Shown: positions 22,097 to 37,759, counted from the first letter of the stretch. The stretch: DNA of 64,000 nucleotides from Candidatus Lloydbacteria bacterium RIFCSPHIGHO2_02_FULL_50_18 (GCA_001821395.1 MHLM01000001.1:32001-96000), one strand, 5' to 3'. Made by a program: numbers and translations. The notes: generated by a model not told the origin, from the sequence alone.

Positions 22097-22171
22097 CAGA
22101 TGAATATTTCATTAATTTCACAAAAATAGTGAAAAAGTGTCGATTATGCACAGATTAATTGAAGCATGGGC

Positions 22172-22200
22172 TTGACCGAAGTTAGCGCCTCTGCTAGTAT
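22172..22200 (+). promoter_or_regulatory. Promoter TTGACC-17-TAGTAT upstream of infA
   Basis: Good -35 and -10 boxes with a 17-bp spacer, about 20 nt before ATG 22220. Confidence 0.55.
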
Positions 22201-22219
22201 CTGGACACCCATTTTTGAC

Positions 22220-22438
22220 ATGAGTGACGACAAGCAAAAGGAGTCGACGATCATCGGTACGGTCATCGAAGCTCTCCCAAACACAATGTTTCGTGTCCAG
22301 ACAGAACCTGGACTTGAAGTGCTTGCGTACCTTTCCGGCAAAATGCGTATTCATCGCATAAAGGTTCTCGTAGGTGACAAGGTGTCACTCGAAGATAATC
22401 CTTATGGTGGGAAGTTGAGAATCGTTAAACGAATGTAA
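22220..22438 (+). CDS. infA: Translation initiation factor IF-1
   Basis: S1-like OB fold ([33 protein letters not shown]). Confidence 0.9.
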
Positions 22439-22506
22439 TTTGCATCAAAAGGACCGGTCTTGTACGACGATTATGTCGTATTGAGATTTGTTTTTATCAC
22501 AATAAT

Positions 22507-22620
22507 ATGCGCGTAAGAGCTTCAGTTAAAAAAATTTGTGCGAAATGTAAATCCGTCAAACGCCGGGGGACTATTTACGTCATCTGTGAGAATCCCCGAC
22601 ATAAGCAAAAGCAAGGCTAA
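22507..22620 (+). CDS. rpmJ: 50S ribosomal protein L36 (37 aa; below the ORF-track length cutoff)
   Basis: Translation gives [37 protein letters not shown]. It has the conserved position between infA and rpsM. Confidence 0.85.
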
Positions 22621-22632
22621 TTATTTTATTAT

Positions 22633-23013
22633 ATGCGTATCCTTGGTATCACCGTTCCGGAGAATAAACAATTGTGGGTAGGACTCACCGTCTTTTACGG
22701 TATTGGATTTATGACGGCGAAGAAAATTTTAAAAGAGGCCGGTGTTCCTGAGACAAAAAAGCCTGCGGACATATCGACAGAAGAAGAAGCAAAGATCCGT
22801 AAGCAGATTGAAGGAATGACAATCGAGGGTGATCTCAAGCGCGAGAAGGCTGCGAACATTAAGCGCCTTAAAGATATCAAATCATACAGAGGTTCACGTC
22901 ACACGCGCGGACTTCCGTCACGAGGACAGCGCACAAAGACCAATTCCCGTACCGTAAGAGGAAATGTACGAAAGACGATGGGCAGCGGTCGACGCAAGCT
23001 CGAAAAGAAATAA
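22633..23013 (+). CDS. rpsM: 30S ribosomal protein S13
   Basis: MRILGITVPENKQLWVGLTVFYGIG…. Confidence 0.95.
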   Translation: MRILGITVPENKQLWVGLTVFYGIGFMTAKKILKEAGVPETKKPADISTEEEAKIRKQIEGMTIEGDLKREKAANIKRLKDIKSYRGSRHTRGLPSRGQRTKTNSRTVRGNVRKTMGSGRRKLEKK

Positions 23014-23044
23014 TCAATGACATTAACAGCGTAAGCAACGAACA

Positions 23045-23479
23045 ATGGGTAAGAAACGAATAGTCAAAAAGGCGGGAGGCAGCGTAGATCAAGGTCTGAA
23101 AGCGCGGTCACTTTCGCGTGTGCCGAAAAAGAAGATCTCGCATGCGATCCTCAATATCCAGTCAACCTACAACAATACCATCGTCTCGCTTGCGGATTCG
23201 GAAGGAAAGGTGCTTATGTGGTCAACTTCCGGCTCACTCGGATTCAACGGGGCAAAGAAGGGGACTCCGTTCGCAGCCGCAAAGATTGGAGAGCTCCTCG
23301 CAGAAAAGGCGCAATTGATGGGACTGAAGTCTGTAGATGCGATCGTGAAGGGGGTCGGCAGTGGTCGCGAGTCTGCGATCCGCGCGTTCATCGCGAAGGG
23401 GGTTGAGATTACCTCCATCAAGGATAAGACCCCCGTGCCGCATAACGGACCCCGAGCAAAGAAACCCCGCCGCATTTAA
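23045..23479 (+). CDS. rpsK: 30S ribosomal protein S11
   Basis: …WSTSGSLGFNGAKKGTPFAAA…. Confidence 0.95.
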   Translation: MGKKRIVKKAGGSVDQGLKARSLSRVPKKKISHAILNIQSTYNNTIVSLADSEGKVLMWSTSGSLGFNGAKKGTPFAAAKIGELLAEKAQLMGLKSVDAIVKGVGSGRESAIRAFIAKGVEITSIKDKTPVPHNGPRAKKPRRI

Positions 23480-23500
23480 TCCTCACCAATCAAAGAACAT

Positions 23501-24127
23501 ATGTCTGATGCAAAATGTAAAATATGCCGACGTGCAGGAGAAAAACTTTTTTTGAAGGGTGATAAGTGCTTTACCGCAAAATGTATTTTTGAAAAACGTC
23601 CTACCCCTCCCGGAAAACCGATCAGTGAGCGCAAGCACCGCAGTATGGTGACCGAATACGGCACACAGCTGAAAGAGAAGCAGAAGATTCGCAATACCTA
23701 TGGTGTTTCGGAAAAGCAATTCCGTACCTATGTTATCAACTCGACCAGCGAGAAGGGTTCCCCGGTTGACCATTTATTTGAGAACCTAGAACGTCGTCTT
23801 GATAATGTCGTCTACCGACTTGGCTATGCCGTTAATCGTACTCAGGCCCGCCAAATGGTCTCTCACGGTCATTTCGTTATCGGAAAAAGGAAGATTACCA
23901 TCCCGTCATATCGCGTATCCACCGGAGAGGTGATCGTCGTTCGTGAGGGAAGTAGGAAATCTCCACTTTTCACTGGTGCATCCGAGAAATTATCGAAGCA
24001 TTCCGCACCCGCGTGGCTTTCAACCGATCCTGTCAAACTCACTGCTGAAGTTAAGGGTGTACCAAAGTACAGTAAAGACGCACTCAGCTTTAACGTTCAA
24101 TCCGTAATTGAGTTCTACAGTCGCTAG
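23501..24127 (+). CDS. rpsD: 30S ribosomal protein S4
   Basis: N-terminal zinc-ribbon-like KCKICRRAGEKLFLKGDKC and an S4 domain. Confidence 0.95.
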   Translation: MSDAKCKICRRAGEKLFLKGDKCFTAKCIFEKRPTPPGKPISERKHRSMVTEYGTQLKEKQKIRNTYGVSEKQFRTYVINSTSEKGSPVDHLFENLERRLDNVVYRLGYAVNRTQARQMVSHGHFVIGKRKITIPSYRVSTGEVIVVREGSRKSPLFTGASEKLSKHSAPAWLSTDPVKLTAEVKGVPKYSKDALSFNVQSVIEFYSR

Positions 24128-24209
24128 TCGTTGAAGTAGAAGTATTGTATAATGTTTTGTCGAGGATCTATCAAAAGCTATCGTTATTAAGCCATAATCG
24201 CCAATTGCC

Positions 24210-25184
24210 ATGCCTGACTACAATGTCGCGTTGCCATCGAAGCCAAAACCTATCCGCGAGGAGGGTTCTATGGGAGTGTACGAGATAGAGGGACTTTACC
24301 CGGGTTACGGTCATACGCTCGGAAACTCTCTGCGCCGTATCATCCTTTCTTCGCTTCCCGGTGCTGCGCTTACATCACTGAAGATTGATGGCGTTTTGCA
24401 CGAATTTTCCACGATCGAAGGGATCAAGGAGGACGTCATAACGTTGATCCTTAATCTGAAAAAAGTACGCATCAAGATGCTTACCGATGAGCCCCAGACC
24501 ATCACGCTTTCGCTCAAGGGCGCAAAGAAGGTGACCGCCGGAGATATCACGATCAACGGTCAGGTGGAGATATTGAATCCTGAGCAATACATCTGTGAAA
24601 TGACCGATAAGAATGCGGTTGTGAATGCAGAGATGAAAGTTGAAAAAGGACTCGGCTATCTTGCAAAGGAGTCGATTCAGAAGGAGAAGGTTGAGATCGG
24701 AACGATCGCGCTTGATGCGGCATTTACCCCTATTCGACGAGTCAATTACGAAGTGGAGACGATGCGTGTTGGAGATCGCACTGATTACAATCGTCTGAAG
24801 ATCACAATCGAGACCGATGGAACACTCACTCCGCGCTCGGCTGTTGAGAACGCTATTGAGATCATGATTCATCAGTTGAAAGCGATCATCGGATTCAAGG
24901 AAGAGGAACTGATCAAGGAAGAGGTTCACGAGGTCACGGAGGAGTCCCATGAATCGACGGAGGGTGAGGGTGGAGTGGATACGGAGTTCTTGAAAACTCG
25001 CATCGACTCGCTTGATCTTTCTGCCCGAACCCAGAACGCACTCACCGGAGCAAATATCCGTACCGTAGGAGGGCTTGTTCGTAAAAAGGAAGAGGATCTC
25101 ATGGACCTCGACGGACTCGGAGAGAAAGGAGTCCAGGAGATCAAGCGCGCCCTATCGAACTTCGGCGTCACCCTAAAACAATAA
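24210..25184 (+). CDS. rpoA: DNA-directed RNA polymerase alpha subunit
   Basis: Alpha N-terminal domain and C-terminal domain, joined by an acidic linker. Confidence 0.95.
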   Translation: MPDYNVALPSKPKPIREEGSMGVYEIEGLYPGYGHTLGNSLRRIILSSLPGAALTSLKIDGVLHEFSTIEGIKEDVITLILNLKKVRIKMLTDEPQTITLSLKGAKKVTAGDITINGQVEILNPEQYICEMTDKNAVVNAEMKVEKGLGYLAKESIQKEKVEIGTIALDAAFTPIRRVNYEVETMRVGDRTDYNRLKITIETDGTLTPRSAVENAIEIMIHQLKAIIGFKEEELIKEEVHEVTEESHESTEGEGGVDTEFLKTRIDSLDLSARTQNALTGANIRTVGGLVRKKEEDLMDLDGLGEKGVQEIKRALSNFGVTLKQ

Positions 25185-25219
25185 TAGCGATTAACCAGTA
25201 GTCATTACCAAACACGCGT

Positions 25220-25579
25220 ATGAGACATCACAACAAAAACAAGAAATTCGGACGACAGGCAGGAGTACGTGAGGCACTCATGCGCTCTTTGGTGCTTTCG
25301 CTCTTGACGCATGAGAAGATAATGACTTCAGAGGCAAAGGCTAAGGCGCTTCGACCAATGGTTGAAAAGATGATCACCAAGGCTCGTGAGGGCGGAATAC
25401 CGGTGGTTCGTCTCATCAAGTCACGTCTGTACAACAACACCGATATCACCAACAAGCTCGTGAAGGAGATCGCCCCAAGATACAAAGACCGAAAGGGAGG
25501 ATATACGCGTATCACGAAGATCGGTTCACGAAGCGGCCGTGGTGATGCAAGTCCGCTTGCGACGATCGAACTTATTTAA
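25220..25579 (+). CDS. rplQ: 50S ribosomal protein L17
   Basis: MRHHNKNKKFGRQAGVREALMRSL…. Confidence 0.95.
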   Translation: MRHHNKNKKFGRQAGVREALMRSLVLSLLTHEKIMTSEAKAKALRPMVEKMITKAREGGIPVVRLIKSRLYNNTDITNKLVKEIAPRYKDRKGGYTRITKIGSRSGRGDASPLATIELI

Positions 25580-25604
25580 TATTTCTTACCAAAAGAACAC
25601 CATC

Positions 25605-25949
25605 ATGGAACATGTCATAGACGCAACAGGAAGAGCTCTCGGACGAGTCGCAAGTGAAGCGGCGTCGGTACTTTTGGCTAAGAACACCACTTCTGGCGCG
25701 AAGAACGTCGTTGCAAACGTCACCGTGCGAGTGAAGAACGCAAGCGCGCTCTCGATCTCAGACAAAAAGATGAAGCAAAAGACCTATCATAGCCATAGTG
25801 GCTACCTTGGTAGTGATCGGGCACTTACGCTTAGTCATATCATTGAAAAAAAGGGTCACGGAGAAGCGATCATTCGCGCAGTGAAAGGAATGCTCCCAAC
25901 AAATACACTACGGGACAAGAGGCTTAAACATTTAATTATTGAAGACTAA
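25605..25949 (+). CDS. rplM: 50S ribosomal protein L13
   Basis: MEHVIDATGRALGRVASEAASVL…. Start set at ATG 25605. Confidence 0.9.
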   Translation: MEHVIDATGRALGRVASEAASVLLAKNTTSGAKNVVANVTVRVKNASALSISDKKMKQKTYHSHSGYLGSDRALTLSHIIEKKGHGEAIIRAVKGMLPTNTLRDKRLKHLIIED

Positions 25950-25953
25950 ACGT

Positions 25954-26415
25954 ATGCCAACAGCAGCAACACCAAAACCAAAGGCAGCAGCAAAGCCCGC
26001 AACGAAGGCGGCTGCGAAGGGTACCGCAAGATACATTGAAGCAGTGGGTCGCCGAAAGACCGCTATCGCTCGTGTTCGGGCAACGGAATCTTCAAAGAAC
26101 TCATTCAAGATCAATGACCGTACTCTTGAGAGCTATTTTGGCACAATGGAACTTCAGTCAATTGTGAACGCGCCGCTTGATCGCGAAGGATTCGTCGTGA
26201 AGTATGCGGTGACCGTCAAGGTCGTCGGAGGGGGAACACACGCTCAGGCAGAGGCAATCCGCCACGGTCTTTCCCGTATCATCGTTATGGAGGATGCGGA
26301 ACAGAAGGCAGAGCTCAAGAAACTCGGATTCATCAGACGCGACCCTCGTAAGGCAGAGCGCAAGCATTTCGGGCTCAAGAAGGCTCGCAAGGCGTCACAG
26401 TGGAGTAAGCGTTAA
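25954..26415 (+). CDS. rpsI: 30S ribosomal protein S9 with a Lys/Ala/Pro-rich N-terminal extension
   Basis: …GGGTHAQAEAIRHGLSRII…RRDPRKAERKHFGLKKARKASQWSKR. Start set at ATG 25954. Confidence 0.9.
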   Translation: MPTAATPKPKAAAKPATKAAAKGTARYIEAVGRRKTAIARVRATESSKNSFKINDRTLESYFGTMELQSIVNAPLDREGFVVKYAVTVKVVGGGTHAQAEAIRHGLSRIIVMEDAEQKAELKKLGFIRRDPRKAERKHFGLKKARKASQWSKR

Positions 26416-26437
26416 TACACAGCGTATTTTATCGAAG

Positions 26438-26465
26438 AACTCCTCAAAAAGGAGTTTTTTGATTT
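26438..26465 (+). terminator. Rho-independent terminator after the ribosomal-protein cluster
   Basis: Hairpin aactcct-caaaa-aggagtt followed by ttttttgatttt. Confidence 0.8.
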
Positions 26466-26496
26466 TCATTATTTTTTTTGCTACACTCAACACATT

Positions 26497-27135
26497 ATGG
26501 ACGATAAACAACAAACTGGTTCTGACGACCGCACGACGCAAGACTTTCCATTAGGTGGAGGGGTAGATATCGTCGGAAGCGATGACGTTGCCGACGATGT
26601 ACAGATAGAATCATACAATGACGACGTAGACGGAGGCGGAGAAATGACTCCTCGTGATCACATCAAGCTGTTGCGCGAGAAACTGCGCGAGTCGAACGCG
26701 TTAAAACAAGAGTACCTCGACGGATGGCAGCGGCTAAAAGCGGACTGCGTCAATTACAAAAAGCGTGAAGAAGAGGGGAAGGGAGAATTCCTCAAATTCG
26801 CCCGCGAAGGAATCATTACCGACCTGCTTCCGGTGTTAGAGAGTTTTCATATGGCATTTTCGAACAAGGAAGCATGGGGTAAAGTTGACCCCTCCTGGAG
26901 GACTGGCGTTGAGTACATTCACACCCAATTGCTGCAAGTGCTTGCGGGGCACGGCCTCACTCAAGTGGACCCTATCGGTGCCGTATTTGACCCAAATGAG
27001 CATACTTCTATCGGAACGGTGCCGACAGATGATTCGTCGCTTGATCACAAGGTGGCGGAGGTAGCACAGTTGGGGTACCGACTTTCCGGCAAGCTGATCC
27101 GATCTCCAAGAGTGAAAATTTATACCCAAGGATAA
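26497..27135 (+). CDS. grpE: Nucleotide exchange factor GrpE
   Basis: GrpE coiled-coil and beta domain (DYLDGWQRLKADCVNYKKR…ITDLLPVLESF). Confidence 0.9.
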   Translation: MDDKQQTGSDDRTTQDFPLGGGVDIVGSDDVADDVQIESYNDDVDGGGEMTPRDHIKLLREKLRESNALKQEYLDGWQRLKADCVNYKKREEEGKGEFLKFAREGIITDLLPVLESFHMAFSNKEAWGKVDPSWRTGVEYIHTQLLQVLAGHGLTQVDPIGAVFDPNEHTSIGTVPTDDSSLDHKVAEVAQLGYRLSGKLIRSPRVKIYTQG

Positions 27136-27237
27136 CATCATGCAACCTTTTGGAGAAAGCGCAAGTAACAGTGTGTACTCAACGTAATGTTCAAGTTTAT
27201 TTAGCAATACTATTCATAAGCTCACATTCAAACATAT

Positions 27238-29127
27238 ATGGCAAAAGTACTCGGAATTGACTTAGGAACGACAAATTCAGCAATGGCGATCGTCGAAGCG
27301 GGAGAGCCGAAGATCGTCGAAAATATCGAAGGTGTACGAACGACGCCGTCTATTGTCGCACTCTCGAAAACAGGGGAGCGCTTGGTCGGTTTGACCGCAA
27401 AACGTCAGGCGGTAACAAATCCTGAGAACACGCTTTATGAGATAAAGCGCTTGATCGGACATAGCTTCGAAGAGGAGTCTGTGCAGCGTGATCAAAAAGT
27501 AGTCCCGTTCAAGATCGAACAGGGAGACAACAATGGTGTAAAGGTAAAGATGGGCGACAAGTCTTTCCGCCCTGAAGAGATCTCTGCAATGGTGCTTTCG
27601 AAATTGAAGGCTGACGCGGAAGCAAAGCTCGGCGAAACGATCACCGATGCCGTCATTACTGTTCCGGCATACTTCAACGATGCACAGCGTCAGGCGACCA
27701 AAGATGCCGGTACGATTGCGGGCTTCAATGTCCTTCGTATCATCAATGAACCCACTGCGGCGGCACTTGCATACGGCTTTGATAAGAAAAAGAACGAGAA
27801 GATCGTTGTGTACGATTTTGGCGGCGGAACGTTCGACGTTTCGGTACTTGAGGTTGGTGACGATGTGATCGAGGTCAAATCGACCGACGGTGATAGTCAC
27901 ATGGGTGGAGGTGATATCGACCAAAAGATCATGGCGTGGATCGTTTCAGAGTTTAAGAAGGAATCCGGGATCGACGTATCAAAAGACATGCTTGCGACAC
28001 AGCGCCTGAAGGAGGCTGCGGAGAAGACGAAACACGAGCTATCAAATATTCCGGAATCAGAGATCAATATCCCGTTCATTACCTCAAACGCCGACGGGCC
28101 AAAGCATTTGTTGCTGAAGATGTCGCGTGCCAAACTCGAAGAACTCGCGATGGAGTATGTCGATCGATCGATCGAGATCACCAAGCGTGCGCTTGATGCG
28201 TCCGGACTCAAGGTGGGGGACATCAATGAGATACTTCTTGTCGGTGGACAGACGCGCATGCCGCTCATGATCGCACGAGTAAAGGAGCTCTTCGGAAAGG
28301 AGCCAAATCGTACGATCAATCCGGACGAAGTCGTCGCTGTTGGCGCAGCGATCCAAGGAGGGATATTGAAGGGTGACGTGAAAGATATACTTTTGCTTGA
28401 TGTCATTCCACTTTCATTCGGAATCGAAACCATGGGTGGCATTGCTACGAAGCTGATCGAACGAAACACAACGATTCCCGCGTCGCGCTCTCAGATATTT
28501 TCAACGGCAGCAGATAATCAAACTTCAGTCGAAGTGCACGTCTACCAAGGTGAGCGCGGAATGGCCGCAGACAATAAGTCGCTTGGCCGGTTCATTCTTG
28601 ATGGTATTCCACCCGCACCGCGCGGAATGCCTCAGGTTGAGGTGACCTTTGACGTGGACGTTAACGGAATTCTCTCAGTGAAGGCTAAAGATAAAACATC
28701 AGGAAAGGAACAATCGATCCGTATCGAAGCACGCTCATCATTGTCCAAAGATGATATCGAACGCATGAAGAAAGAAGCTGAGGTTCATGCTGATGATGAC
28801 AAAAAGAAACAGGAGGCGGTTGAAGTAAAAAATATCGCTGAGACCCTCGTCTACACTGCAGAAAAAGCACTCAAAGATAACGGGGATAAAATTCCCGCTG
28901 ACATTAAGGCTGACGTCGAGGTAAAGATCGCTGAAGTCAAAAATGTCAAAGATGGTACCGATGTGGAGGCGACAAAGAAGGCAACCGAAGAGCTTTCCTC
29001 GCATATGCAGAAGATCGGCGAAGCAATGGCAAAACAAGCCAGTACCACGGAAGGTGCACCGCAGACACCACCGGAGGGCGGCGAGGCGGCGGGAACTGCA
29101 CCCGAAGGCACCGTGCACGACGTCTAG
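27238..29127 (+). CDS. dnaK: Chaperone DnaK (Hsp70)
   Basis: [15 protein letters not shown]…[14 protein letters not shown]… across the full length. Confidence 0.97.
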
Positions 29128-29225
29128 GAGGAAGGAACGGTTAGGGAATAATATCCCTGAAAAGAAAAGTCGGACGCATGTCCGGCTTTTTGTGCTACAA
29201 AAAACGTCAGCATGAATAATATAGC

Positions 29226-29254
29226 TTGTCAAACATCGTCGATATCTGTATAAT
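29226..29254 (+). promoter_or_regulatory. Promoter TTGTCA-17-TATAAT for dnaJ and the downstream operon; near-leaderless
   Basis: The -10 box ends 8 nt before ATG 29263. A weak hairpin plus T-run follows dnaK at about 29170-29195. Confidence 0.65.
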
Positions 29255-29262
29255 GCTCCCGT

Positions 29263-30339
29263 ATGGCAAAAGACTATTACGAAATATTGGGTGTAGGGAA
29301 GACCGCCACGAAGGAAGAGCTGAAAAAGGCTTTTCACAAACTCGCGCATAAATATCATCCCGATAAAGCCGGTGGCAATGAAGCAAAGTTCAAAGAAATG
29401 AACGAGGCATATCAAGTGCTCTCCGACGAGTCAAAACGCAGTCAGTACGATCAGTATGGGAGCGCATCTTTCGATGGCGGAGGCCCACCTCCAGGAAGCG
29501 GATTTAGCGGGCAAGGGTACGGAGGCGGCGGATTCGAGGGGGTTGATCTCGGTGATATCTTCAATGACTTCTTCGGTGCGGGGTTCAACGGAGGTAGCGG
29601 GCAGCGCGTCGAACGCGGTCGGGATATTTCTGTTGATATAGAGATCTCATTTGAAGAAAGTATTTTTGGCACTAAACGCAAAGTGCTTCTCGGTAAAACC
29701 TCAACATGCGACATGTGCCATGGATCGGGCGCAAAACCAGGTACGAAGCTTAAGAAATGCGTAACGTGCAGCGGAAAAGGACGCGTCAATGAATTGCGAA
29801 AATCATTTCTTGGTACGTTCTCTACCGTAACAACCTGCAATGTCTGTAAAGGTATTGGAGAGATTCCCGAGGAGAAGTGTAAGTCATGCTCCGGATTGGG
29901 CGTGGTAAAAAAACAGGAAGAGATCGAGATCAATGTCCCCGTCGGTATCAATGCCGGCGAAATGCTTCGCATGAGCGGAAAGGGTGAGGCGGTCTCACGT
30001 GGAATTGCCGGGGACCTCTACATCAAAGTACACGTGAAGCCGCATGCACTCTATCATCGTGAAGGGAATAATTTGGTGATGGATCTTGATGTGAAACTCT
30101 CGGATGCACTTCTTGGTGCAACATACAAGATCACGGCGCTTGACGGGAAGCAGCTTGATGTGAAAATTCCGGAGGGCGTGAAATTCGGTGACACACTTCG
30201 GCTTAAGGAAAAAGGGATAGCGAATTCCGGCCGCGGCAGAACGGGCGATATTCTCATTCACGTGAACATCAAGACCCCCACCCGCCTTTCAAGTAAAGCA
30301 AAGAAACTCATTGAAGAATTGAAACAAGAGGGGGTATAA
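29263..30339 (+). CDS. dnaJ: Chaperone DnaJ
   Basis: J-domain with HPD, a G/F-rich linker, and four CxxCxGxG zinc-finger repeats. Confidence 0.95.
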   Translation: MAKDYYEILGVGKTATKEELKKAFHKLAHKYHPDKAGGNEAKFKEMNEAYQVLSDESKRSQYDQYGSASFDGGGPPPGSGFSGQGYGGGGFEGVDLGDIFNDFFGAGFNGGSGQRVERGRDISVDIEISFEESIFGTKRKVLLGKTSTCDMCHGSGAKPGTKLKKCVTCSGKGRVNELRKSFLGTFSTVTTCNVCKGIGEIPEEKCKSCSGLGVVKKQEEIEINVPVGINAGEMLRMSGKGEAVSRGIAGDLYIKVHVKPHALYHREGNNLVMDLDVKLSDALLGATYKITALDGKQLDVKIPEGVKFGDTLRLKEKGIANSGRGRTGDILIHVNIKTPTRLSSKAKKLIEELKQEGV

Positions 30340-30357
30340 TTGGTGTCTCTCAGTTGC

Positions 30358-31434
30358 ATGCCCAGAAAGATCATGACTACAAATATTCAAATCCTTCGCG
30401 ACGAAAATCTATCGGTATATCCTGAGTTCGATCAACATCGAAGAGTGGTCCGTTTTGAAGATTCGACATCCGGTCTTGTGGGATTCATTGCTATTCATCG
30501 CGAGCGTGGACCGCTTTCGACGGGCGGAACGCGATATGTGTCATATCCGAATGAGGCAGATGCGATCCGTGATGCCTTACGCCTCTCTCGTGCGATGACC
30601 GCAAAATGTGTCGTATCGGGATTACCCTATGGGGGTGCAAAGGGGGTGATCATGGCAAGACAGGGTGGAATACAGAAATCCAAAGAGCTCCTTGCTGCAT
30701 ACGCCGGCGTCGTTGAATCCTTAGGCGGAGCATTTCGTACGGGTGAAGATGTGGGAATGACCGAGCAAGACGTACAGATCCTGCTTTCCCATTCGAATTT
30801 TTTCAATGGAAAAAGCGATATCGCCGGAGACCCGTCTCCGTTTGCAGCTGAAAGCGTCGCCCTTGTGATGGATCGTATCTCCCAACTGCATCTCGGCGTA
30901 TCGCCCGAAAAGCTTCGCATAGCGGTGAAAGGGATCGGTAAGGTCGGCGGGGCGCTCGTGAAGATTCTTGCCGCTCAGGGTGCGAATGTCAGCATTGCCG
31001 ATGTGAACAAGGATGCGCTAGAGCAGGTCCGAGGTCTCTATCCCGCTATTGCTGAGATCTCTCCGGAAGAGATTGCGTTCACTGATTCAGATATTTATGC
31101 GCCGTGCGCGCTCGGAAATGAGGTGAATGAAGGAACCATCGATCGTTTTCAAGCGAAGATGCTCTGTGGCGGAGCGAATAATCAGCTGGCCGATCCGCGA
31201 TTCGCAAAGATCCTTGAGTCACACAACATCCTATATGTTCCCGATTATCTTGCAAATGCCGGCGGGCTGATCAACGTTTCGGACGAGCTTGAGCCTGACG
31301 GCTATCATCGCAACCGCGTTACGGAACGTATAAACGCGATCGGCACACTCGCCGAAAAGCTCTATCTCTCTTCTCGTAACAATACGCGGACATTCCTCGA
31401 AGAGGTTGAAGAATATGTACGCGCAAATGTATAA
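30358..31434 (+). CDS. Glu/Leu/Phe/Val dehydrogenase-family amino-acid dehydrogenase (leucine/phenylalanine dehydrogenase-like)
   Basis: Catalytic-lysine motif GLPYGGAKGVI and an N-terminal substrate domain (GFIAIHRERGPLSTGGTRYVSY). About 358 aa, like LeuDH/PheDH. It starts 16 nt after the dnaJ stop. Confidence 0.8.
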   Translation: MPRKIMTTNIQILRDENLSVYPEFDQHRRVVRFEDSTSGLVGFIAIHRERGPLSTGGTRYVSYPNEADAIRDALRLSRAMTAKCVVSGLPYGGAKGVIMARQGGIQKSKELLAAYAGVVESLGGAFRTGEDVGMTEQDVQILLSHSNFFNGKSDIAGDPSPFAAESVALVMDRISQLHLGVSPEKLRIAVKGIGKVGGALVKILAAQGANVSIADVNKDALEQVRGLYPAIAEISPEEIAFTDSDIYAPCALGNEVNEGTIDRFQAKMLCGGANNQLADPRFAKILESHNILYVPDYLANAGGLINVSDELEPDGYHRNRVTERINAIGTLAEKLYLSSRNNTRTFLEEVEEYVRANV

Positions 31435-31437
31435 GAG

Positions 31438-32463
31438 ATGAATTTTCATATGGCACAAAAGATGAACACCGCGGAATTCCCCGATCTCGGCACATTGGAA
31501 GAGCAGGTACTGTTTGCATCGCATTATGCCGTTCGCGCTCCATCGACTCACAATTCGCAACCCTGGCTTTTCCGGATCGGGGCTAATACCGTCGAGGTCC
31601 ACGCAGACTGGGCAAAGAAATTACCCTATGGCGACAAGGACGGCAGAGATATGTGCATCAGCGTCGGCGCATGCATTGAACATACAAGGGTGGCATTCTC
31701 ATATTTTGGGATGCTTGAGGGTCTTGTCGTAAATGAAGCGGTCGTGCTTTCGGATAAAAAGCCGATCGCGATATTCATGGTCCATCGCTCGACGGGGACA
31801 GACGAGACATTGCTTCAGACCATATGTGCGATCGAAGGTCGCTTCAACGCACGAGGACCATTCCTCAAAAAAGAGATCCCCCACGCATTGTTACGCGGCA
31901 TTGAGGAGGCGAGCGAGCCGGGTATATCTTTTGCGATACTTACCGAACATGCGGACATAATGAGATTCGCAGACCTTACTGGAGAGGGAATGCGGGTGGC
32001 ACATCGTGTGCCTGAGTTTCGGGGCGAGATCGCAAAGTGGATGATCAATAATTACTCAAAGAAAAAGGAGGGTATACCCGGGTATACGATGCTTGCCCCG
32101 GGACTGCTATCGCTTATTCTTCCCTCACTCATCGGGAGATTCAACCTCGGGGGAGTTCTCTCAAAGCTCAACCATCTTTCCATTGCTTCTTCGTCAGGAG
32201 TGATCATATTTTCCTCTAAAGACTCACCAAGCAGCTGGGTGCATGTGGGGATGCTATTTGCGAGAATGTCGCTTTCACTCAACGTCGAAAACATTCGCAC
32301 CTCGGTCTATGTTGCCTCGATCGAAATGCCCGACATACGCAGTCGGTTAAAGGAGCTCTTGCCGACCGATGAAATGCCACAATTTGCTTGTGCGTTCGGT
32401 TATCCGAAAGTTACCCTGCGCCAATCTCCTCGCCATGAACCTAAGGATCGTATGATACAATAG
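31438..32463 (+). CDS. Nitroreductase-superfamily protein, probably of the Acg-like 340-aa type (putative FMN-dependent oxidoreductase)
   Basis: RAPSTHNSQPWLF motif and a conserved C-terminal region (…FACAFGYPK). It lies 3 nt after the dehydrogenase gene. Confidence 0.7.
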   Translation: MNFHMAQKMNTAEFPDLGTLEEQVLFASHYAVRAPSTHNSQPWLFRIGANTVEVHADWAKKLPYGDKDGRDMCISVGACIEHTRVAFSYFGMLEGLVVNEAVVLSDKKPIAIFMVHRSTGTDETLLQTICAIEGRFNARGPFLKKEIPHALLRGIEEASEPGISFAILTEHADIMRFADLTGEGMRVAHRVPEFRGEIAKWMINNYSKKKEGIPGYTMLAPGLLSLILPSLIGRFNLGGVLSKLNHLSIASSSGVIIFSSKDSPSSWVHVGMLFARMSLSLNVENIRTSVYVASIEMPDIRSRLKELLPTDEMPQFACAFGYPKVTLRQSPRHEPKDRMIQ

Positions 32464-32468
32464 TTACG

Positions 32469-33542
32469 ATGAATTCACTCTCATTCGACAACCGGACATA
32501 TACGCCGATCATCTTTTCAGGCATTGATGCAGGATCTGAATTTTTGCTGTTTCGCACGCAATGGGAAAAGGCGAATGGCGCCCTTATCATCGTTGATGAT
32601 GAAAAAGAACAAGCAAAAGAATACGGATTGCTGAGAGATCCCTCACTACTTAAATCCGGCACCGAGCCGGAGAGCGACTCTACGCTCGAATTTATTTGGA
32701 TCGTCATTCCTTGGAGAAAAACAGCAGTTCGGACACTCGCCAAAGATGCCTACCGATCACTTCGCTCCTCACGCAATCACGATCTGCTCACAAAGGATGA
32801 GGCGAGTATTCTCTCAAAAAAAAGAATAGGCATTGCAGGACTCAACGTCGGCAACCCCGCGGCAATATGCCTTGCACAGGAGGGCATCGGTTCATATTTA
32901 CGCATGGCGGACAATGACACACTTTCTCTTTCGAATCTTAATCGTTTTCGCGCGAGTATCGCAGATCTTGGTGTGAATAAGGCCGTACTTTCAGCTCGTC
33001 AGGCATACGAGATAGATCCTTTTCTCGAGATCGATGTTTGGGAGAACGGCGTAAGTCCTGAGAGCTTGTCCGAGTTCGTTAAGGGCATTGACCTCCTCAT
33101 TGAGGAGATGGACGCACCACCACTGAAGTTGGCGATACGGGAGGAAGCAAAGAGGCAACACGTCCCCACCATTATGATAACCGGCAATGGGCATGATATC
33201 ATCCTCGACATAGAACGTTTTGATACAGATCACGATCTACCACTTCTCTCGGGGAAGCTTACGAACGAAGTAAAGAGGCAGATAGCGCAGGGTCCAAAGA
33301 ACTTCAAAGAAAAGGTTGCGCTCGCTCAAGATTTTATGGGCAAAGAATATCTTTGCGAACGACTGAACTCCTCATTCCAGGAAGTAGGGGAGACGCTCAT
33401 CGGTATTCCCCAACTTGCGGAGGCTTCATTCCTACGCGGTGCCGTTCTCGCTCACGCATGTCGAGGCATCTTGCTCGGTGAGGAGGTCAAGAGCGGGAGG
33501 TATGCGTTCGGTTTGAGCGACCTTTATAATAAGCCCGTGTAA
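32469..33542 (+). CDS. ThiF/MoeB/HesA-family E1-like adenylyltransferase with a roughly 115-aa N-terminal extension
   Basis: Rossmann segment IGIAGLNVGNPAAICLAQEGIG…MADNDTLSLSNLNR. There is no C-terminal CxxC zinc motif. Confidence 0.75.
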   Translation: MNSLSFDNRTYTPIIFSGIDAGSEFLLFRTQWEKANGALIIVDDEKEQAKEYGLLRDPSLLKSGTEPESDSTLEFIWIVIPWRKTAVRTLAKDAYRSLRSSRNHDLLTKDEASILSKKRIGIAGLNVGNPAAICLAQEGIGSYLRMADNDTLSLSNLNRFRASIADLGVNKAVLSARQAYEIDPFLEIDVWENGVSPESLSEFVKGIDLLIEEMDAPPLKLAIREEAKRQHVPTIMITGNGHDIILDIERFDTDHDLPLLSGKLTNEVKRQIAQGPKNFKEKVALAQDFMGKEYLCERLNSSFQEVGETLIGIPQLAEASFLRGAVLAHACRGILLGEEVKSGRYAFGLSDLYNKPV

Positions 33543-33544
33543 AT

Positions 33545-35035
33545 ATGTCTGATTCTTTCAAGGATACTCTCTGTGCGCTTCATAATAGACCCGAGACTGA
33601 GTGGCAGCGACGTGGTGATGCGTTCATGCTGAAACTCTTTCGCGATACCGCAAAGAACGTTCCGGCATATAAAGCATTCTTACGATCACACGGCGTAACC
33701 CCTGGCTCCATCCGAGACATCGCCACATTCAAAAAAGAGATACCGCTCGTAAGTAAGGAGAATTATTTAAAGGTCTACCCGCTCAATGAACTGCTTCCCG
33801 CCGGCGATATCGCAGGTGCACAGATGATATCAACGAGTTCAGGGTCGTCCGGCATACCATTCTATTGGCCGCGCAGCACGCACAACATCGACGAGGCGGC
33901 GCTCATTCACGAACTATTTCTTGTCGACATATTTCACATCAACAAAAAGCGCACGCTTCTTGTGAACACCTTCGCGATGGGCATGTGGGTTGCCGGAACA
34001 ACGACATTTGAATCAGTTTCGCGCATTGCAGATAAATACCGCATAACCATGGTGACGCCGGGCATCGATATGGAGCAGATACTCACTACGATCAATGCAT
34101 TGGGAAAATATTACGAGCAGATCATCATTGCGGGCTATCCTCCCTTTGTAAAAGATATCATTGATATCGGCAAAGAACGCGGGATCAAATGGCAGAAACT
34201 TAATGTACGATTTCTTTTTGCCGCAGAATCATTTAGCGAAGATTGGCGCGAGCATATGCATAAACTGGTCGGCTGCAAGGATCCGTTATCGGGATCGATC
34301 AATATTTACGGCACCGCAGATGCTCTTTTGGTGGCGCACGAAACGCCGCTTTCAATACTCATTCGCAAGCTCGCAACAAAGAGCGGGCGTCTTCACAAGA
34401 AACTCTTCGGCCCCGATCTGCGTATTCCTACATTGGCGCAATGGAATCCCTCGATGCGCTATTTTGAAGAACTTCCGGACGCAAAGATCATTTTCTCCGC
34501 AAACAGCGGTATACCGCTCATTCGTTATGACATTGGGGATACAGGAAATATTCTACACATCAAGGAAACAGCTGACCTTCTTCGATCAGAAGGTGTCGAC
34601 TTAAAACACGAGGCGAAAGTTCACAATATTTCAAGGACGTTGTGGAATTTACCCATATTGACGATCTATGGTCGTGATCGCATGACCGCATCACTCTACG
34701 GTCTCAAAATCTATCCCGAGCACGTGCGTGGTGCACTCGAAGGCAAGACCGGAAGCAAGTATGCAACGGGGCGGTTCGTGATGACCACAAAACTTGATGC
34801 TGACCGGAACCAATACCTTGAGATACATATTGAGCTTCATTCAAAGATACAAAGCAATAAGAAGATCATCGAACATTTGCAGATGATCATGTTGAAACAA
34901 TTACGAGCCGTCAATAGCGAGTTTAAGCGGCTACACGAATCACTTGGTGAGCGTGCAGTACCCAAGATAGTCCTGCATCAAAATCAGACATCATCATTAT
35001 TCAGCCGCAAAGGGAAGCAGGTTTGGAAAGGCTAA
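33545..35035 (+). CDS. PaaK / coenzyme F390 synthetase / CapK-like adenylate-forming enzyme (ANL superfamily)
   Basis: N-terminal PaaK-like region (VPAYKAFLRSHGVTPGSIRDIATFKKEIPLVSKENYLKVYP…ISTSSGSSGIPFYWPRS, a P-loop analogue of SSGTTGKP). 496 aa. Confidence 0.7.
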   Translation: MSDSFKDTLCALHNRPETEWQRRGDAFMLKLFRDTAKNVPAYKAFLRSHGVTPGSIRDIATFKKEIPLVSKENYLKVYPLNELLPAGDIAGAQMISTSSGSSGIPFYWPRSTHNIDEAALIHELFLVDIFHINKKRTLLVNTFAMGMWVAGTTTFESVSRIADKYRITMVTPGIDMEQILTTINALGKYYEQIIIAGYPPFVKDIIDIGKERGIKWQKLNVRFLFAAESFSEDWREHMHKLVGCKDPLSGSINIYGTADALLVAHETPLSILIRKLATKSGRLHKKLFGPDLRIPTLAQWNPSMRYFEELPDAKIIFSANSGIPLIRYDIGDTGNILHIKETADLLRSEGVDLKHEAKVHNISRTLWNLPILTIYGRDRMTASLYGLKIYPEHVRGALEGKTGSKYATGRFVMTTKLDADRNQYLEIHIELHSKIQSNKKIIEHLQMIMLKQLRAVNSEFKRLHESLGERAVPKIVLHQNQTSSLFSRKGKQVWKG

Positions 35036-35044
35036 CGGCAATAC

Positions 35045-36670
35045 ATGTTATCTCTTACCATTGCCATCATCATATTGAACCTTTCTCTCGGACTAGCAAT
35101 TCTCGTCCAATCTAAGAGGGGTGTCGACGCGGGTGTTTTCTTTTTGATCACGCTGGCATTTTCCGCACTTACTATCGCAAATTATCTCTCACTTACCACC
35201 GATCCCAACGTCGCACTGTATTGGGTTCGCGCGGAGATGTTTATCGCCGCATGGCATACGTTCCTCTTCTTTGTCTTTGTCCACGCATTTGCAAAAAGTC
35301 ACTTTGAATATTCTCTCAAACACAGCCTCATCTTTACGGTACCATTCATCATCATCCTGGTGATCTCTGTCTCGCCCTACCTCTTTTCAGCCGTTGCCCT
35401 CAATAAGAACGGGCTCGTAGAGACGATCCCGGGGAATCTTTTCCCCGTCTTTGCCCTCTGGCTTCTGGGAACAATGTTCCTTTCAATGCGGCGTGTCGTC
35501 ATAAATTTCCGGTCAAGTACTGGTACATTGCGCTCGCAGTGGAAATATCTGCTCATTGGTTCGTGCTCGACCTACCTCTTGCTTATTATTTTCAACTTCA
35601 TTTTGGGGGGTTTTCTGCAAAACACAAGATTCCTTGCATACACTCCGATATTCTCCTTGCCTATTCTCTTTGCGACGGCATACGCGATCGTCAAACATAA
35701 CCTTTTTGATATTAAGGTTCTTGCGACTCAGGCATTCGTCACGATCATTTCGATCTTTTACCTCGTGAGAATCGTCGTTGCAACAACAATGACCGATCGC
35801 GTGATCGGCGGAGTGATCTTTGTCACAACGGTATTCTTTGGCTTCCTGCTCATTCGGAGTGTCAAAGAAGAGATTCGAGCGCGTGAAAAGATTGCACTTA
35901 TGGCGAAGAGCCTCACTGATACAAATTGGGAGTTGGCAAAATCGAACGAGCAGCTTCGCATCATCGACAAGCGCAAGAGCGAGTTTGTTTCCATCGTCTC
36001 ACATCAGTTGCGCACCCCGATCACTGCCATGAAGGGCTACTCATCGCTCCTTCTTGAGGATTCCTACGGACCCATCACCGATGCAGTTCGCGCTCCGATA
36101 GAAAAAATATTCGTGTCGTCAAAACGTCTCGCAGAGATGGTGACCGACTTCTTGAACATCTCGAAGATCGAACAAGGAACAATGACCTACACGTTGACCC
36201 CGGTTGATGTTGGTACAATGATCACGGATCTCACCGAAGAATTTATCCCCGTGGCGCGTCTCAAGAACATTAGACTGCAGGCTGATGTTCCGACCAGTGA
36301 GAAGTTCATCGTGAATGCTGACGATGGAAAACTTCGCCAAGTACTGTCAAATCTTATTGATAATTCGATCAAATATACACCGCAAGGCGGAGTAGACATT
36401 TCTGTTGAAACGTTGCTCGAGCGCGACCTTATCCTCATTAAGATCAAAGACACGGGTATCGGGCTTTCCCAAGAGGACATCCACCATCTCTTCGGTAAAT
36501 TTACCCGCGGTTCGGAAGGACAGCGGCACAACACTGATGGATCAGGGCTCGGTCTCTATGTAGCAAAGAAAATGCTCGAAGCACAAGGAGGAAATGTCTG
36601 GGTGGATTCAGAAGGCCCCGGCAAAGGTTCAACGTTCATCATTGAACTCCACAAGGAAGGAGAAAATTAA
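35045..36670 (+). CDS. Sensor histidine kinase with a multi-TM (7TMR-like) N-terminal sensor; no response regulator is adjacent
   Basis: Six to seven TM helices, HisKA (FVSIVSHQLRTPITAMKGY) and HATPase_c (IKDTGIGLS…GSGLGLYVAKK) motifs. Confidence 0.85.
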   Translation: MLSLTIAIIILNLSLGLAILVQSKRGVDAGVFFLITLAFSALTIANYLSLTTDPNVALYWVRAEMFIAAWHTFLFFVFVHAFAKSHFEYSLKHSLIFTVPFIIILVISVSPYLFSAVALNKNGLVETIPGNLFPVFALWLLGTMFLSMRRVVINFRSSTGTLRSQWKYLLIGSCSTYLLLIIFNFILGGFLQNTRFLAYTPIFSLPILFATAYAIVKHNLFDIKVLATQAFVTIISIFYLVRIVVATTMTDRVIGGVIFVTTVFFGFLLIRSVKEEIRAREKIALMAKSLTDTNWELAKSNEQLRIIDKRKSEFVSIVSHQLRTPITAMKGYSSLLLEDSYGPITDAVRAPIEKIFVSSKRLAEMVTDFLNISKIEQGTMTYTLTPVDVGTMITDLTEEFIPVARLKNIRLQADVPTSEKFIVNADDGKLRQVLSNLIDNSIKYTPQGGVDISVETLLERDLILIKIKDTGIGLSQEDIHHLFGKFTRGSEGQRHNTDGSGLGLYVAKKMLEAQGGNVWVDSEGPGKGSTFIIELHKEGEN

Positions 36671-36715: not shown

Positions 36716-37759
36716 ATGAGAAATACTGAGGATCGAGTACTGACGGGGGATAGACCGACCGGAAAGCTTCATTTGGGGCATTTTGCGGGCTCGATACAAA
36801 ATCGACTAAAGATCCAGAACGGTGAGCTCAAGTTCAAAAATCCAATTGAGCAAATTTTCTATATGGTGGCGGACGTGCAGGCACTCACTGACAATGCAGA
36901 CAACCCAGAAAAGGTGCGCTCATCGGTTCTTGAAGTGGCGCTCGACAATCTCGCATGCGGGATGAACCCCAAAAAAACAACGATGTTTATCCAGTCGCAG
37001 GTACCCGAGATTGCCGAACTCACTATTTTTTTTCTCAACCTAGTAACAGTATCTCGCCTCAAGCAAAATCCAACCGTAAAGACAGAGATCAAACAGAAGG
37101 GTTTTGGTGAGAACGTTCCGGCGGGATTTCTTGCATACCCAGTCTCTCAGGCGGCTGATATTCTTACCTTTAAAGCGAATCTCATCCCGGTAGGAGAAGA
37201 TCAGAAGCCAGTCATCGAGCAGGCTAATGAATTGGGTGCTAAATTTAACTCAATGTATGGAGAAACATTTTCTTATATCACCCCGCTGCTACCTCCAAAG
37301 AATTCACCGGAATCTCGCATGCCAGGGATCGATGGCAAGGCAAAGATGTCAAAATCATTGGGGAATGCGATCTTTCTCGCTGATTCGGAAAAAGAGATCG
37401 AACAGAAGGTCATGCAAATGTATACCGACCCGAGCCATATCCATCTCGCAGATCCGGGTGAGGTCAAAGGAAATGTTGTCTTCACCTATCTTGATGTATT
37501 CGATCCAAAGAAAAAGGAGGTTGCGGAGTTAAAAAAACAGTATAAAAAAGGAGGGCTTGGCGACGTCGTGCTGAAAAAACGCCTTGCGGCCGTACTGAAC
37601 GAGATGCTCATGCCCATCCGAGAACGACGTGAGGAGCTTGCACGCAATCCAAAGCATATTATGGACATCCTTGAGGCGGGAACAAAAGAAGCACGTCATA
37701 CCGCAAAAGCTACTCTCGCCGAAGTTCGCGAACATATGAAGATCGATTATTTCGGGTAG
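36716..37759 (+). CDS. trpS: Tryptophanyl-tRNA synthetase
   Basis: HIGH-like motif (GDRPTGKLHLGHFAGS) and KMSKSLGN. 347 aa. Confidence 0.9.
   Translation: MRNTEDRVLTGDRPTGKLHLGHFAGSIQNRLKIQNGELKFKNPIEQIFYMVADVQALTDNADNPEKVRSSVLEVALDNLACGMNPKKTTMFIQSQVPEIAELTIFFLNLVTVSRLKQNPTVKTEIKQKGFGENVPAGFLAYPVSQAADILTFKANLIPVGEDQKPVIEQANELGAKFNSMYGETFSYITPLLPPKNSPESRMPGIDGKAKMSKSLGNAIFLADSEKEIEQKVMQMYTDPSHIHLADPGEVKGNVVFTYLDVFDPKKKEVAELKKQYKKGGLGDVVLKKRLAAVLNEMLMPIRERREELARNPKHIMDILEAGTKEARHTAKATLAEVREHMKIDYFG

Follow-up and report, generated by a model that had tools for sequence, protein, structure and literature searches.

A probable split oxazolone synthetase within a conserved gene cassette of Patescibacteria

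A stretch of 64,000 nucleotides from Candidatus Lloydbacteria bacterium RIFCSPHIGHO2_02_FULL_50_18 (hereafter the window, meaning the whole stretch of DNA that was analysed) encodes, at 32469..33542, a ThiF/E1-like protein of 357 aa that probably acts as the ATP-dependent cyclodehydratase subunit in a split oxazolone synthetase related to OxzB, TyzB-TyzC and TrzS. The gene, its partners and the motifs described below all lie on the + strand. By homology and architecture the protein belongs to the TrzS/TyzB/OxzB clade as a newly recognised split form, and there it would correspond to the N-terminal half of TrzS and to a TyzB-like subunit. The first report of enzymes that form small-molecule oxazolones, on OxzB, dates from 2020-21, and work on Mycobacterium tuberculosis followed in 2023-25. 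OxzB, TyzB/TyzC and TrzS all perform ATP-dependent cyclisation and O2-dependent desaturation of N-acyl Tyr/Phe/Trp (bioRxiv 10.1101/2020.06.11.147165; PMC10404671; PMC12856293). A database protein that is 100% identical to the open reading frame (ORF) is named Candidatus Lloydbacteria, of the Patescibacteria or Candidate Phyla Radiation (CPR), and a search for oxazolone or tyrazolone combined with Patescibacteria/CPR found no paper in the searchable literature. The cyclase/oxidase pair is conserved in at least 234 species-level genomes, in organisms of minimal biosynthetic capacity. A sequence-only reading of the window had set the protein apart from sulfur-carrier E1s and likened it to E1-like enzymes that adenylate peptide C-termini or work with dehydrogenases in azole-forming systems. 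The observation is mostly confirmed and the interpretation is upheld in part: the protein does fit among E1-like enzymes whose adenylation of a carboxylate serves an intramolecular reaction.

Family placement, catalytic motifs and N-terminal domain

The top NCBIfam match of the 357-aa protein is NF005901, 'Rv1355c family protein' (E 1.8e-80, 271.1 bits; aa 36-351 against model positions 33-337 of 722). The second-best ThiF-type NCBIfam model reaches 68 bits, and the ThiF, MoeB and TcdA models give 26-62 bits. Rv1355c was characterised in 2025 as TrzS, which converts N-acyl-tryptophan into N-acyl tryptazolone by ATP-dependent cyclisation and then O2-dependent desaturation (PMC12856293). The window protein shares 38% identity over 282 aa with an Rv1355c-family fusion that scores above the TrzS equivalog cutoff. 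Over its full length the family profile also matches hundreds of ~750-aa proteins: run against 1.84 billion cluster representatives, it returned 1115 clusters at E <= 1e-30, many of them proteins of 715-790 aa matched over profile positions ~5-355; among seven matches of ~715-1060 aa that were scanned, six pass NF005901 and P0259 falls just under it (452 vs 476 bits). The flavin oxidase encoded next to the 357-aa protein also matches the Rv1355c model, at positions 381-552, so that two adjoining genes of the window carry what Rv1355c carries as one. This assignment corrects current annotations of the family, namely 'hypothetical protein', 'ThiF family adenylyltransferase' and 'molybdopterin/thiamine biosynthesis'.

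Pfam recognises a single domain in the protein, ThiF, at aa 106-235. Alignment to the ATP-site motifs of TcdA locates the nucleotide-binding motifs at 32835..32951, and these are the loop A123-GLNVG-N129, D148-N-D150 and S155-NLNRFR161, with the Arg finger. The sequence-only reading had listed GxGxxG together with DxD and SNLNR motifs; D148-N-D150 and S155-N-L-N-R159 are indeed found, and the glycine loop, A123-G-L-N-V-G-N129, is not canonical, being one residue shorter than the TcdA/ThiF loop in the alignment. A further motif, E212-E-M-D215 (33102..33113), holds the Mg/ATP-binding Asp of the adenylation motif, which is invariant and aligned with the conserved Asp of TcdA. Among 40 family members AGLNVGN, DND, SNLNRFR and EEMD215 are invariant, and the ATP/Mg motif columns are likewise invariant in the TrzS-family fusions, in one of which (P0318) the counterparts of EEMD are E228 and D230. 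The GLNVG loop itself is invariant in the CPR family, and the TrzS-type fusions have GLSVG. D215 is the presumed equivalent of D217 of TrzS(Msmeg), a residue-to-residue mapping that we infer. In TrzS, D217A abolishes cyclase activity and R540A loses desaturation (PMC12856293). The C-terminal subdomain (33219..33539) is mostly helical according to DSSP of the model and contains the invariant columns DFMG, GIPQ, RG and SGRY; GIPQ is replaced by WPQ in the ThiF-FDO fusions (FDO, flavin-dependent oxidase). The reported absence of a zinc site is borne out, as the protein has only three Cys residues (134, 296 and 331) and no CxxC.

An AlphaFold2 model, with 40 homologues as input, reached a predicted local distance difference test (pLDDT) of 91.9. 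When the whole model was compared with the PDB by Foldseek, AclA (9egb), ThiF, PaaA, MoeB and TcdA came out on top, and all alignments covered ~260 columns, which correspond to the E1 core. By sequence the closest solved relative is TcdA (2e-8 with the single sequence, 1.6e-13 with the profile).

The core is preceded by a family-specific N-terminal domain (aa 1-91; 32469..32741) of beta-alpha-beta-alpha-alpha-beta-beta order, with invariant E51 and W82 and near-invariant D43 and P58. It had been described as a non-E1 extension of about 115 aa; it is instead ~90 aa long, because the lead-in helix of the E1 core begins near residue 92. Residues 92-118 (LRSSRN...) form this helical lead-in, and profile hits to ThiF and AclA begin at profile positions 92-96. 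The NCBIfam TrzS-family model aligns already from residue 36. A profile of the domain matches the N-terminus of 18 Rv1355c-type ThiF-FDO fusions (hhalign 99.5%, E 3.8e-23, 88 columns), of which six were scanned and all six pass the NF005901 cutoff. The signature common to the CPR proteins and the fusions is P-x-IF ... D ... EQ-x-x-EL ... P ... G-x-W-V-Y-Y-P-W. The extension is thus a conserved module of the oxazolone-synthetase clade and not a clamp of the MccB type. The idea of an 'MccB-like' extension is rejected, given that the fold differs from the winged-helix, PqqD-like RiPP recognition element (RRE) clamp of MccB/PaaA enzymes (RiPP, ribosomally synthesised and post-translationally modified peptide) and no similarity to it is detectable. 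The comparison of structures that had been proposed gives the same answer, with MccB at rank 25 in Foldseek and its match confined to the E1 core.

Neither kind of small partner protein was found. No plausible short precursor peptide (with a C-terminal Asn, MccA-like) is present in the window cassette, and none was called in the related loci; the gaps between genes over 30340-36670 are 0, 3, 5, 2 and 9 bp and leave no room for one. As the sequence-only reading had stated, the window has no ThiS/MoaD partner. The sole three ORFs of 40-130 aa ending in Gly-Gly within the 64 kb (23218-23406, 34135-34302 and 63457-63681) are shadow ORFs that overlap or run antisense to real genes, and no credible ThiS/MoaD-type gene ending in Gly-Gly occurs in the cassettes of relatives either.

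A conserved cassette around the cyclase gene

The gene stands within a compact cassette. The oxidase gene (31438..32463) stops 5 bp upstream and encodes a monomeric double-domain nitroreductase of the Acg/TyzC type (NF047509 Acg-family, 1e-55, 189.5 bits; PDB match 2ymv, Acg), with an APSTHNSQPW motif common to it and the FDO halves of the fusions. It is the presumed desaturase partner of the cyclase. The second option of the sequence-only reading, enzymes that work with dehydrogenases in azole-forming systems, came close: the cyclase is paired with a flavin oxidase from the nitroreductase superfamily, and the ring would be an oxazolone. Downstream, 33545..35035 encodes a PaaK-like adenylate-forming enzyme of 496 aa (NCBIfam PaaK 1.3e-8; family profile against PDB PaaK 5.8e-13) with intact adenylation motifs (SSGSSG, YGTAD, RYDIGD) and a C-terminal GK motif. 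Upstream of the oxidase, in what we call slot 1, lies a hydrophobic-amino-acid dehydrogenase of the Leu/Trp/Phe dehydrogenase group (30340..31434; Pfam ELFV_dehydrog; ScyB-like 2.8e-71), which matches leucine, tryptophan and phenylalanine dehydrogenases in the PDB at 1.5e-60, 2.1e-51 and 2e-40, respectively. Tryptophan as its substrate, suggested by the ScyB-like NCBIfam match, was dropped since the leucine dehydrogenase structures outscore those for tryptophan. The final cassette gene (35045..36670) encodes a seven-transmembrane (7TM) sensor histidine kinase (HisKA_7TM, HisKA and HATPase_c in Pfam). Beyond it, at 36716..37759, is a tryptophanyl-tRNA synthetase (TrpRS; TIGR00233, 252.8 bits vs cutoff 176.75) whose link to the cassette is uncertain.

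A scan of GTDB with one genome per species found 234 genomes that encode a relative, and the 80 best were fetched. Most of these carry Patescibacteria/CPR labels, and the others bear automatic labels or labels that say little, for example 'bacterium isolate' or 'uncultured Gammaproteobacteria'. Four relatives with 46-51% identity have the same neighbours as the window gene. Neighbours were counted within 6 kb, by profile labelling of ORFs, at the 50 loci flanked on both sides by 5 kb or more: the FDO (nitroreductase) is present at 49 of the 50, the PaaK-like enzyme and the 7TM histidine kinase at 48 each, a deaminating slot 1 enzyme at 27, TrpRS at 14 and a single-domain response regulator at 13. 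Gene order varies (22 arrangements), and the kinase almost always comes at the end. Slot 1 is filled by an ELFV dehydrogenase (15 loci), a HisC-like aminotransferase (7), an aromatic lyase resembling tyrosine ammonia-lyase (3) or an IlvE-type aminotransferase (2).

Several fusions join the same activities. P0351 (1242 aa; Patescibacteria metagenome-assembled genome, MBU0546338.1; L088:6001-9729) combines dehydrogenase, PaaK-like and ThiF-like parts in one chain, and P0256 (924 aa; L089:153-2927) is a ThiF-like protein fused to an aromatic amino-acid lyase/aminomutase; the FDO and the 7TM kinase are again present at both loci. In a Doudnabacteria locus (L069) the ThiF-like protein is fused to the FDO within an otherwise typical cassette. 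We regard the cassette as a new variant, distinguished by an altered acyl-donor logic, by its unvarying association with a sensor kinase and by its distribution across Patescibacteria. PaaK-like and deaminating enzymes stand in place of the hallmark N-acyltransferase, and the whole is physically tied to the 7TM sensor kinase.

One locus lies in a 5.4-Mb non-CPR genome (ERZ25074297 contig_1; L090:5001-11549). It encodes a ThiF-FDO fusion of 732 aa that scores above the TrzS-family cutoff, and after it come a protein of 230 aa with no family match, a histidine kinase of the 7TMR-DISM type, a hybrid kinase and response regulators. The linkage of oxazolone synthetase and 7TM kinase thus reaches beyond CPR, and the idea may generalise. 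In some cassettes the kinase has a GAF domain, which binds small molecules, between the membrane region and HisKA (L074:6061-8301, L031:9842-12106).

TrpRS is found in at least three arrangements: directly 3' of the kinase, directly before the dehydrogenase with overlapping stop and start, and upstream on the opposite strand (examples are the window, 36716-37759, L020:5255-6265, L013, L010, L047 and L052). Because TrzS, the closest characterised enzyme, is Trp-specific, a nearby TrpRS may hint at a tryptophan-derived product; shared CPR synteny is the alternative. A Peptidase_M19 membrane dipeptidase is encoded inside some cassettes (L035:12603-13544; L005/L020, the latter at L020:11141-12076(-)); ORFs of ~304-310 aa within three others (L041:11028-11957, L050:8453-9385 and L056:3948-4862) are unconfirmed as M19, the L041 ORF having no NCBIfam match. 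An alpha/beta hydrolase is encoded in further cassettes (L088:9732-10607; L084:10924-12825) and in one case is fused to the flavin oxidase. Such a dipeptidase or hydrolase could open or degrade an oxazolone or an N-acyl-dehydroamino acid. Other proteins of the cassettes, or fused to the ThiF-like protein, have no Pfam/NCBIfam match (L073:13670-14614 with ~310-aa homologues at three other loci, L079:10179-11291 and the N-terminal 260 aa of P0371) and might be hidden tailoring enzymes or acyltransferases.

The window cassette sits amid housekeeping genes, with ribosomal proteins, rpoA and rplQ and then grpE-dnaK-dnaJ upstream (22166-30339) and trpS-aspS downstream. The dnaK-dnaJ / trpS-aspS frame recurs in L007/L013 with a different internal order of the cassette. 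A promoter-like TTGAAG-18 nt-TATAAT (10/12) lies at 30311-30340, at the very end of dnaJ and immediately in front of the TTG annotated as the start codon of the dehydrogenase. Were this a genuine promoter, it would belong to the cassette itself, and translation of the dehydrogenase would begin at an ATG further downstream. A promoter and terminator scan over 26.4-40 kb was at chance (20 vs 17.0 expected and 15 vs 13.4, respectively) and gives no operon boundaries.

Proposed chemistry, alternative readings and a possible signal

For the CPR enzymes we infer oxazolone chemistry from the characterised homologues. By analogy with these, ATP-Mg would be held by the AGLNVGN loop, D148/D150, R159 and D215, and the free carboxylate of an N-acylated amino acid would be adenylated by the 357-aa protein. 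The amide oxygen would then attack the acyl-adenylate and close an oxazol-5(4H)-one ring. Direct cyclisation, with no thioester intermediate, is argued from the fact that no Cys is conserved across the wider clade (CPR family and TrzS-type fusions compared). The flavin oxidase (31438-32463) would desaturate the C-alpha/C-beta bond to give a conjugated 4-alkylidene oxazolone. Two modules specific to the family, the N-terminal domain of ~90 aa and the helical C-terminal subdomain, are also present in the TrzS-type fusions and probably shape a small-molecule pocket or the interface with the oxidase.

The origin of the acyl group is where the cassette departs from precedent. An adjacent N-acyl amino-acid synthase is called the 'hallmark protein' of oxazolone clusters (PMC12479983), and every described oxazolone or N-acyl-dehydrotyrosine cluster has such a synthase or an acyltransferase (PMC12856293, PMC10404671, PMC12479983). 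Among 250 unlabelled ORFs in and around the 80 cassettes there was no recurrent acyltransferase candidate. A hidden TyzA-like acyltransferase was also looked for; the unannotated cassette ORFs match no acyltransferase model, a result to be read knowing that TyzA types have no Pfam domain and that no reference sequence was used. The N-acyl amino acid of Patescibacteria probably has a source other than an acyl-CoA-dependent N-acyl amino-acid synthase. Gene context suggests that the PaaK-like enzyme may activate a carboxylic acid and so supply or attach the acyl group. This acid would often be produced locally by deamination of an amino acid, through the dehydrogenase here and through an aminotransferase or an ammonia-lyase elsewhere. 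Since every slot 1 enzyme converts an amino acid to a carboxylic acid, namely a 2-oxo acid or an aryl-acrylate, that acid is the likely donor of the acyl group. The lyases of the cassettes are closest to FlxA and one cassette ligase is weakly like FlxY; FlxA and FlxY work together as lyase and ligase in flexirubin biosynthesis. If this is correct, the acyl donor is obtained in a new way, from which oxazolones of new structure are to be expected.

Several points weigh against a split oxazolone synthetase. With 271.1 bits the protein misses the NF005901 equivalog cutoff of 476 bits and is not an equivalog by the NCBI rule. It falls below the cutoff because the model spans both halves of the fusion and the protein is only the first half; adding the 54.2 bits of the oxidase to the 271.1 still leaves the total below 476. 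The oxidase is weakly related to the FDO half of one TrzS-type fusion in pairwise comparison (E 2e-5 over 66 aa), and the FDO assignment is kept on the ground that one Acg/FDO subfamily model matches them both. The window cassette has neither an N-acyl amino-acid synthase nor an N-acyltransferase, so the true substrate could differ from an N-acyl amino acid. No recognisable deaminating enzyme lies within 6 kb at 23 of the 50 loci. PaaK-family enzymes are mostly CoA ligases, and amide formation by the PaaK-like enzyme is a conjecture. The link between kinase and product is purely positional, and the function proposed for the CPR members is taken over from characterised homologues.

In one alternative the protein stays in the same clade but its chemistry differs: the substrate of the ThiF-like/oxidase pair would not be an N-acyl amino acid but, for example, a dipeptide, a cinnamoyl or N-(2-oxoacyl) amino acid, or an acyl-adenylate passed on from the PaaK-like enzyme. 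The product would be a different heterocycle, or a dehydro-amino acid processed by the M19 dipeptidase or the alpha/beta hydrolase. The absence of an N-acyl amino-acid synthase from the cassettes is consistent with this, as are the constancy of the PaaK-like enzyme beside interchangeable deaminating enzymes, the recurrence of the dipeptidase and the hydrolase in some cassettes (one hydrolase being fused to the oxidase), and the differences between the CPR clade and the fusions in the glycine loop (GLNVG vs GLSVG) and several other motifs. However, the three clade members characterised so far share a single cyclisation and desaturation chemistry, the differing motifs are not known specificity determinants, and there is no positive sign of another ring type. 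We consider this alternative unlikely.

It is very improbable that the protein is a TcdA-like tRNA ct6A (cyclic N6-threonylcarbamoyladenosine) dehydratase or another nucleic-acid-modifying cyclodehydratase. Although TcdA is the best solved relative by sequence and the Joint Genome Institute (JGI) labels one homologue so, the equivalog NF011696 scores 33 bits vs a cutoff of 304, and the alignments are confined to aa ~107-252, leaving the N-terminal domain and the C-terminal helical motifs unaligned. TcdA has an architecture of ~270 aa with no extra domains, as opposed to 357 aa with an extra N-terminal domain, and a tRNA modification would not explain why the gene is so strictly linked to those for an oxidase, a PaaK-like enzyme and a kinase. 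An ordinary sulfur-carrier E1 (ThiF/MoeB/MoeZ) for thiamin, molybdopterin or thiocarboxylate chemistry is hardly credible. The core matches the ThiF and MoeB structures well and JGI labels several homologues 'molybdopterin/thiamine biosynthesis adenylyltransferase', but the ThiF/MoeB scores stand against cutoffs of 152-647 bits, and the CxxC, a rhodanese domain and a ThiS/MoaD in the window are all missing. TyzB (as 'MoeW') and Rv1355c (as 'MoeY') were once misannotated alike, before their characterisation (PMC10404671; moeY alias listed). The sequence-only reading had likewise set sulfur-carrier E1s aside, and the best family, which is not ThiF/MoeB, supports it. An MccB/PaaA-like RiPP enzyme, whose N-terminal domain would clamp a ribosomal peptide while the core adenylates its C-terminus or a side chain, is suggested by the extra domain ahead of an E1 core with no zinc site and by PaaA and MccB among the whole-chain Foldseek matches, and is scarcely tenable, being already largely refuted by the N-terminal fold and the lack of a precursor peptide.

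For a split oxazolone synthetase, the question of what the product might do arises from the position of the 7TM histidine kinase next to the cassette genes, on which a signal role is proposed. Speculatively, the oxazolone or its hydrolysed, ring-opened N-acyl-dehydroamino-acid form might be a signal sensed by the kinase, or its synthesis might be under control of the kinase. In a bolder version, which is possible but doubtful, the cassette would be a widespread, conserved CPR module for small-molecule signalling, complete in itself, in which the PaaK-like ligase, often with a deaminase, builds an unusual N-acyl amino acid with no acyl-CoA or synthase, the cyclase and oxidase turn it into an oxazolone or dehydro-amino-acid signal, and the 7TM kinase is the receptor. 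LuxM/LuxN is an autoinducer-synthase/receptor pair of this kind, and if the proposal is true, an analogous pair would exist in ultra-small epibiotic bacteria. It would also assign a signalling role to bacterial oxazolones, whose physiological role is still open (PMC12856293) and is given as unknown in the Mycobacterium papers. The cassette makes it possible to test whether oxazolones act as signals and how CPR bacteria perceive or communicate with their hosts.

Comparison with known systems

The MccB/PaaA enzymes (PDB 3h5a, 5ff5) resemble the window protein in having an E1-like core, an extra N-terminal domain and intramolecular chemistry after adenylation; they differ in possessing an RRE peptide clamp and a precursor peptide, whereas the N-terminal domain here has another fold. 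TcdA/CsdL (PDB 4d7a, 4rdh) is ThiF-like, has no zinc site and cyclises an adenylated carboxylate intramolecularly, but it has no N-terminal domain, another C-terminal subdomain, a tRNA substrate and no oxidase partner. AclA of Tenacibaculum discolor (PDB 9egb/9egc, 2025) is the top Foldseek match (E 1.5e-14, target TM-score (TMt) 0.81, 22-24% identity); unlike the window protein, it consists of the core only (250-265 aa), with no N-terminal domain. No function for AclA was found in the searchable literature; its 2025 PDB entry was solved 'in complex with substrate', and the identity of that substrate could shed light on the pocket of the present family.

The oxazolone synthetases are closer. 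OxzB of Pseudoalteromonas rubra (bioRxiv 10.1101/2020.06.11.147165; PMC12596934) shares the pairing of ThiF with a nitroreductase, a small-molecule substrate and ATP-dependent oxazolone formation. It differs in being fused, proteobacterial and paired with OxzA, an N-acyltransferase that uses acyl-CoAs from beta-oxidation. TyzB/TyzC of M. tuberculosis (Rv2338c/Rv2337c, tyrazolone; PMC10404671) are, like the window pair, a split cyclase (318 aa) and a monomeric FDO of ~340-370 aa. The likeness of TyzB, formerly misannotated as 'MoeW', to the window protein is drawn from its description and not from sequence. TyzB/TyzC work with the acyltransferase TyzA and lauroyl-CoA, and a PaaK-like enzyme and a kinase are absent from the described cluster.

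TrzS (Rv1355c, formerly 'MoeY', the tryptazolone synthase of Mycobacterium/Rhodococcus; PMC12856293) belongs to the best-scoring family model for the 357-aa protein. It has the same N-terminal domain, E1 core motifs, catalytic Asp, C-terminal helical subdomain and Acg/TyzC-type oxidase partner. Unlike the window system, TrzS is a single ThiF-FDO fusion of ~720 aa, whereas the window has two genes in reverse order, with the oxidase first. It is paired with the N-acyltransferase TrzA, which has no counterpart in the window, and the host here is a Patescibacterium. Both systems have neighbours involved in signalling, which are genes of cyclic di-GMP turnover in M. tuberculosis (PMC12856293) and a histidine kinase here.

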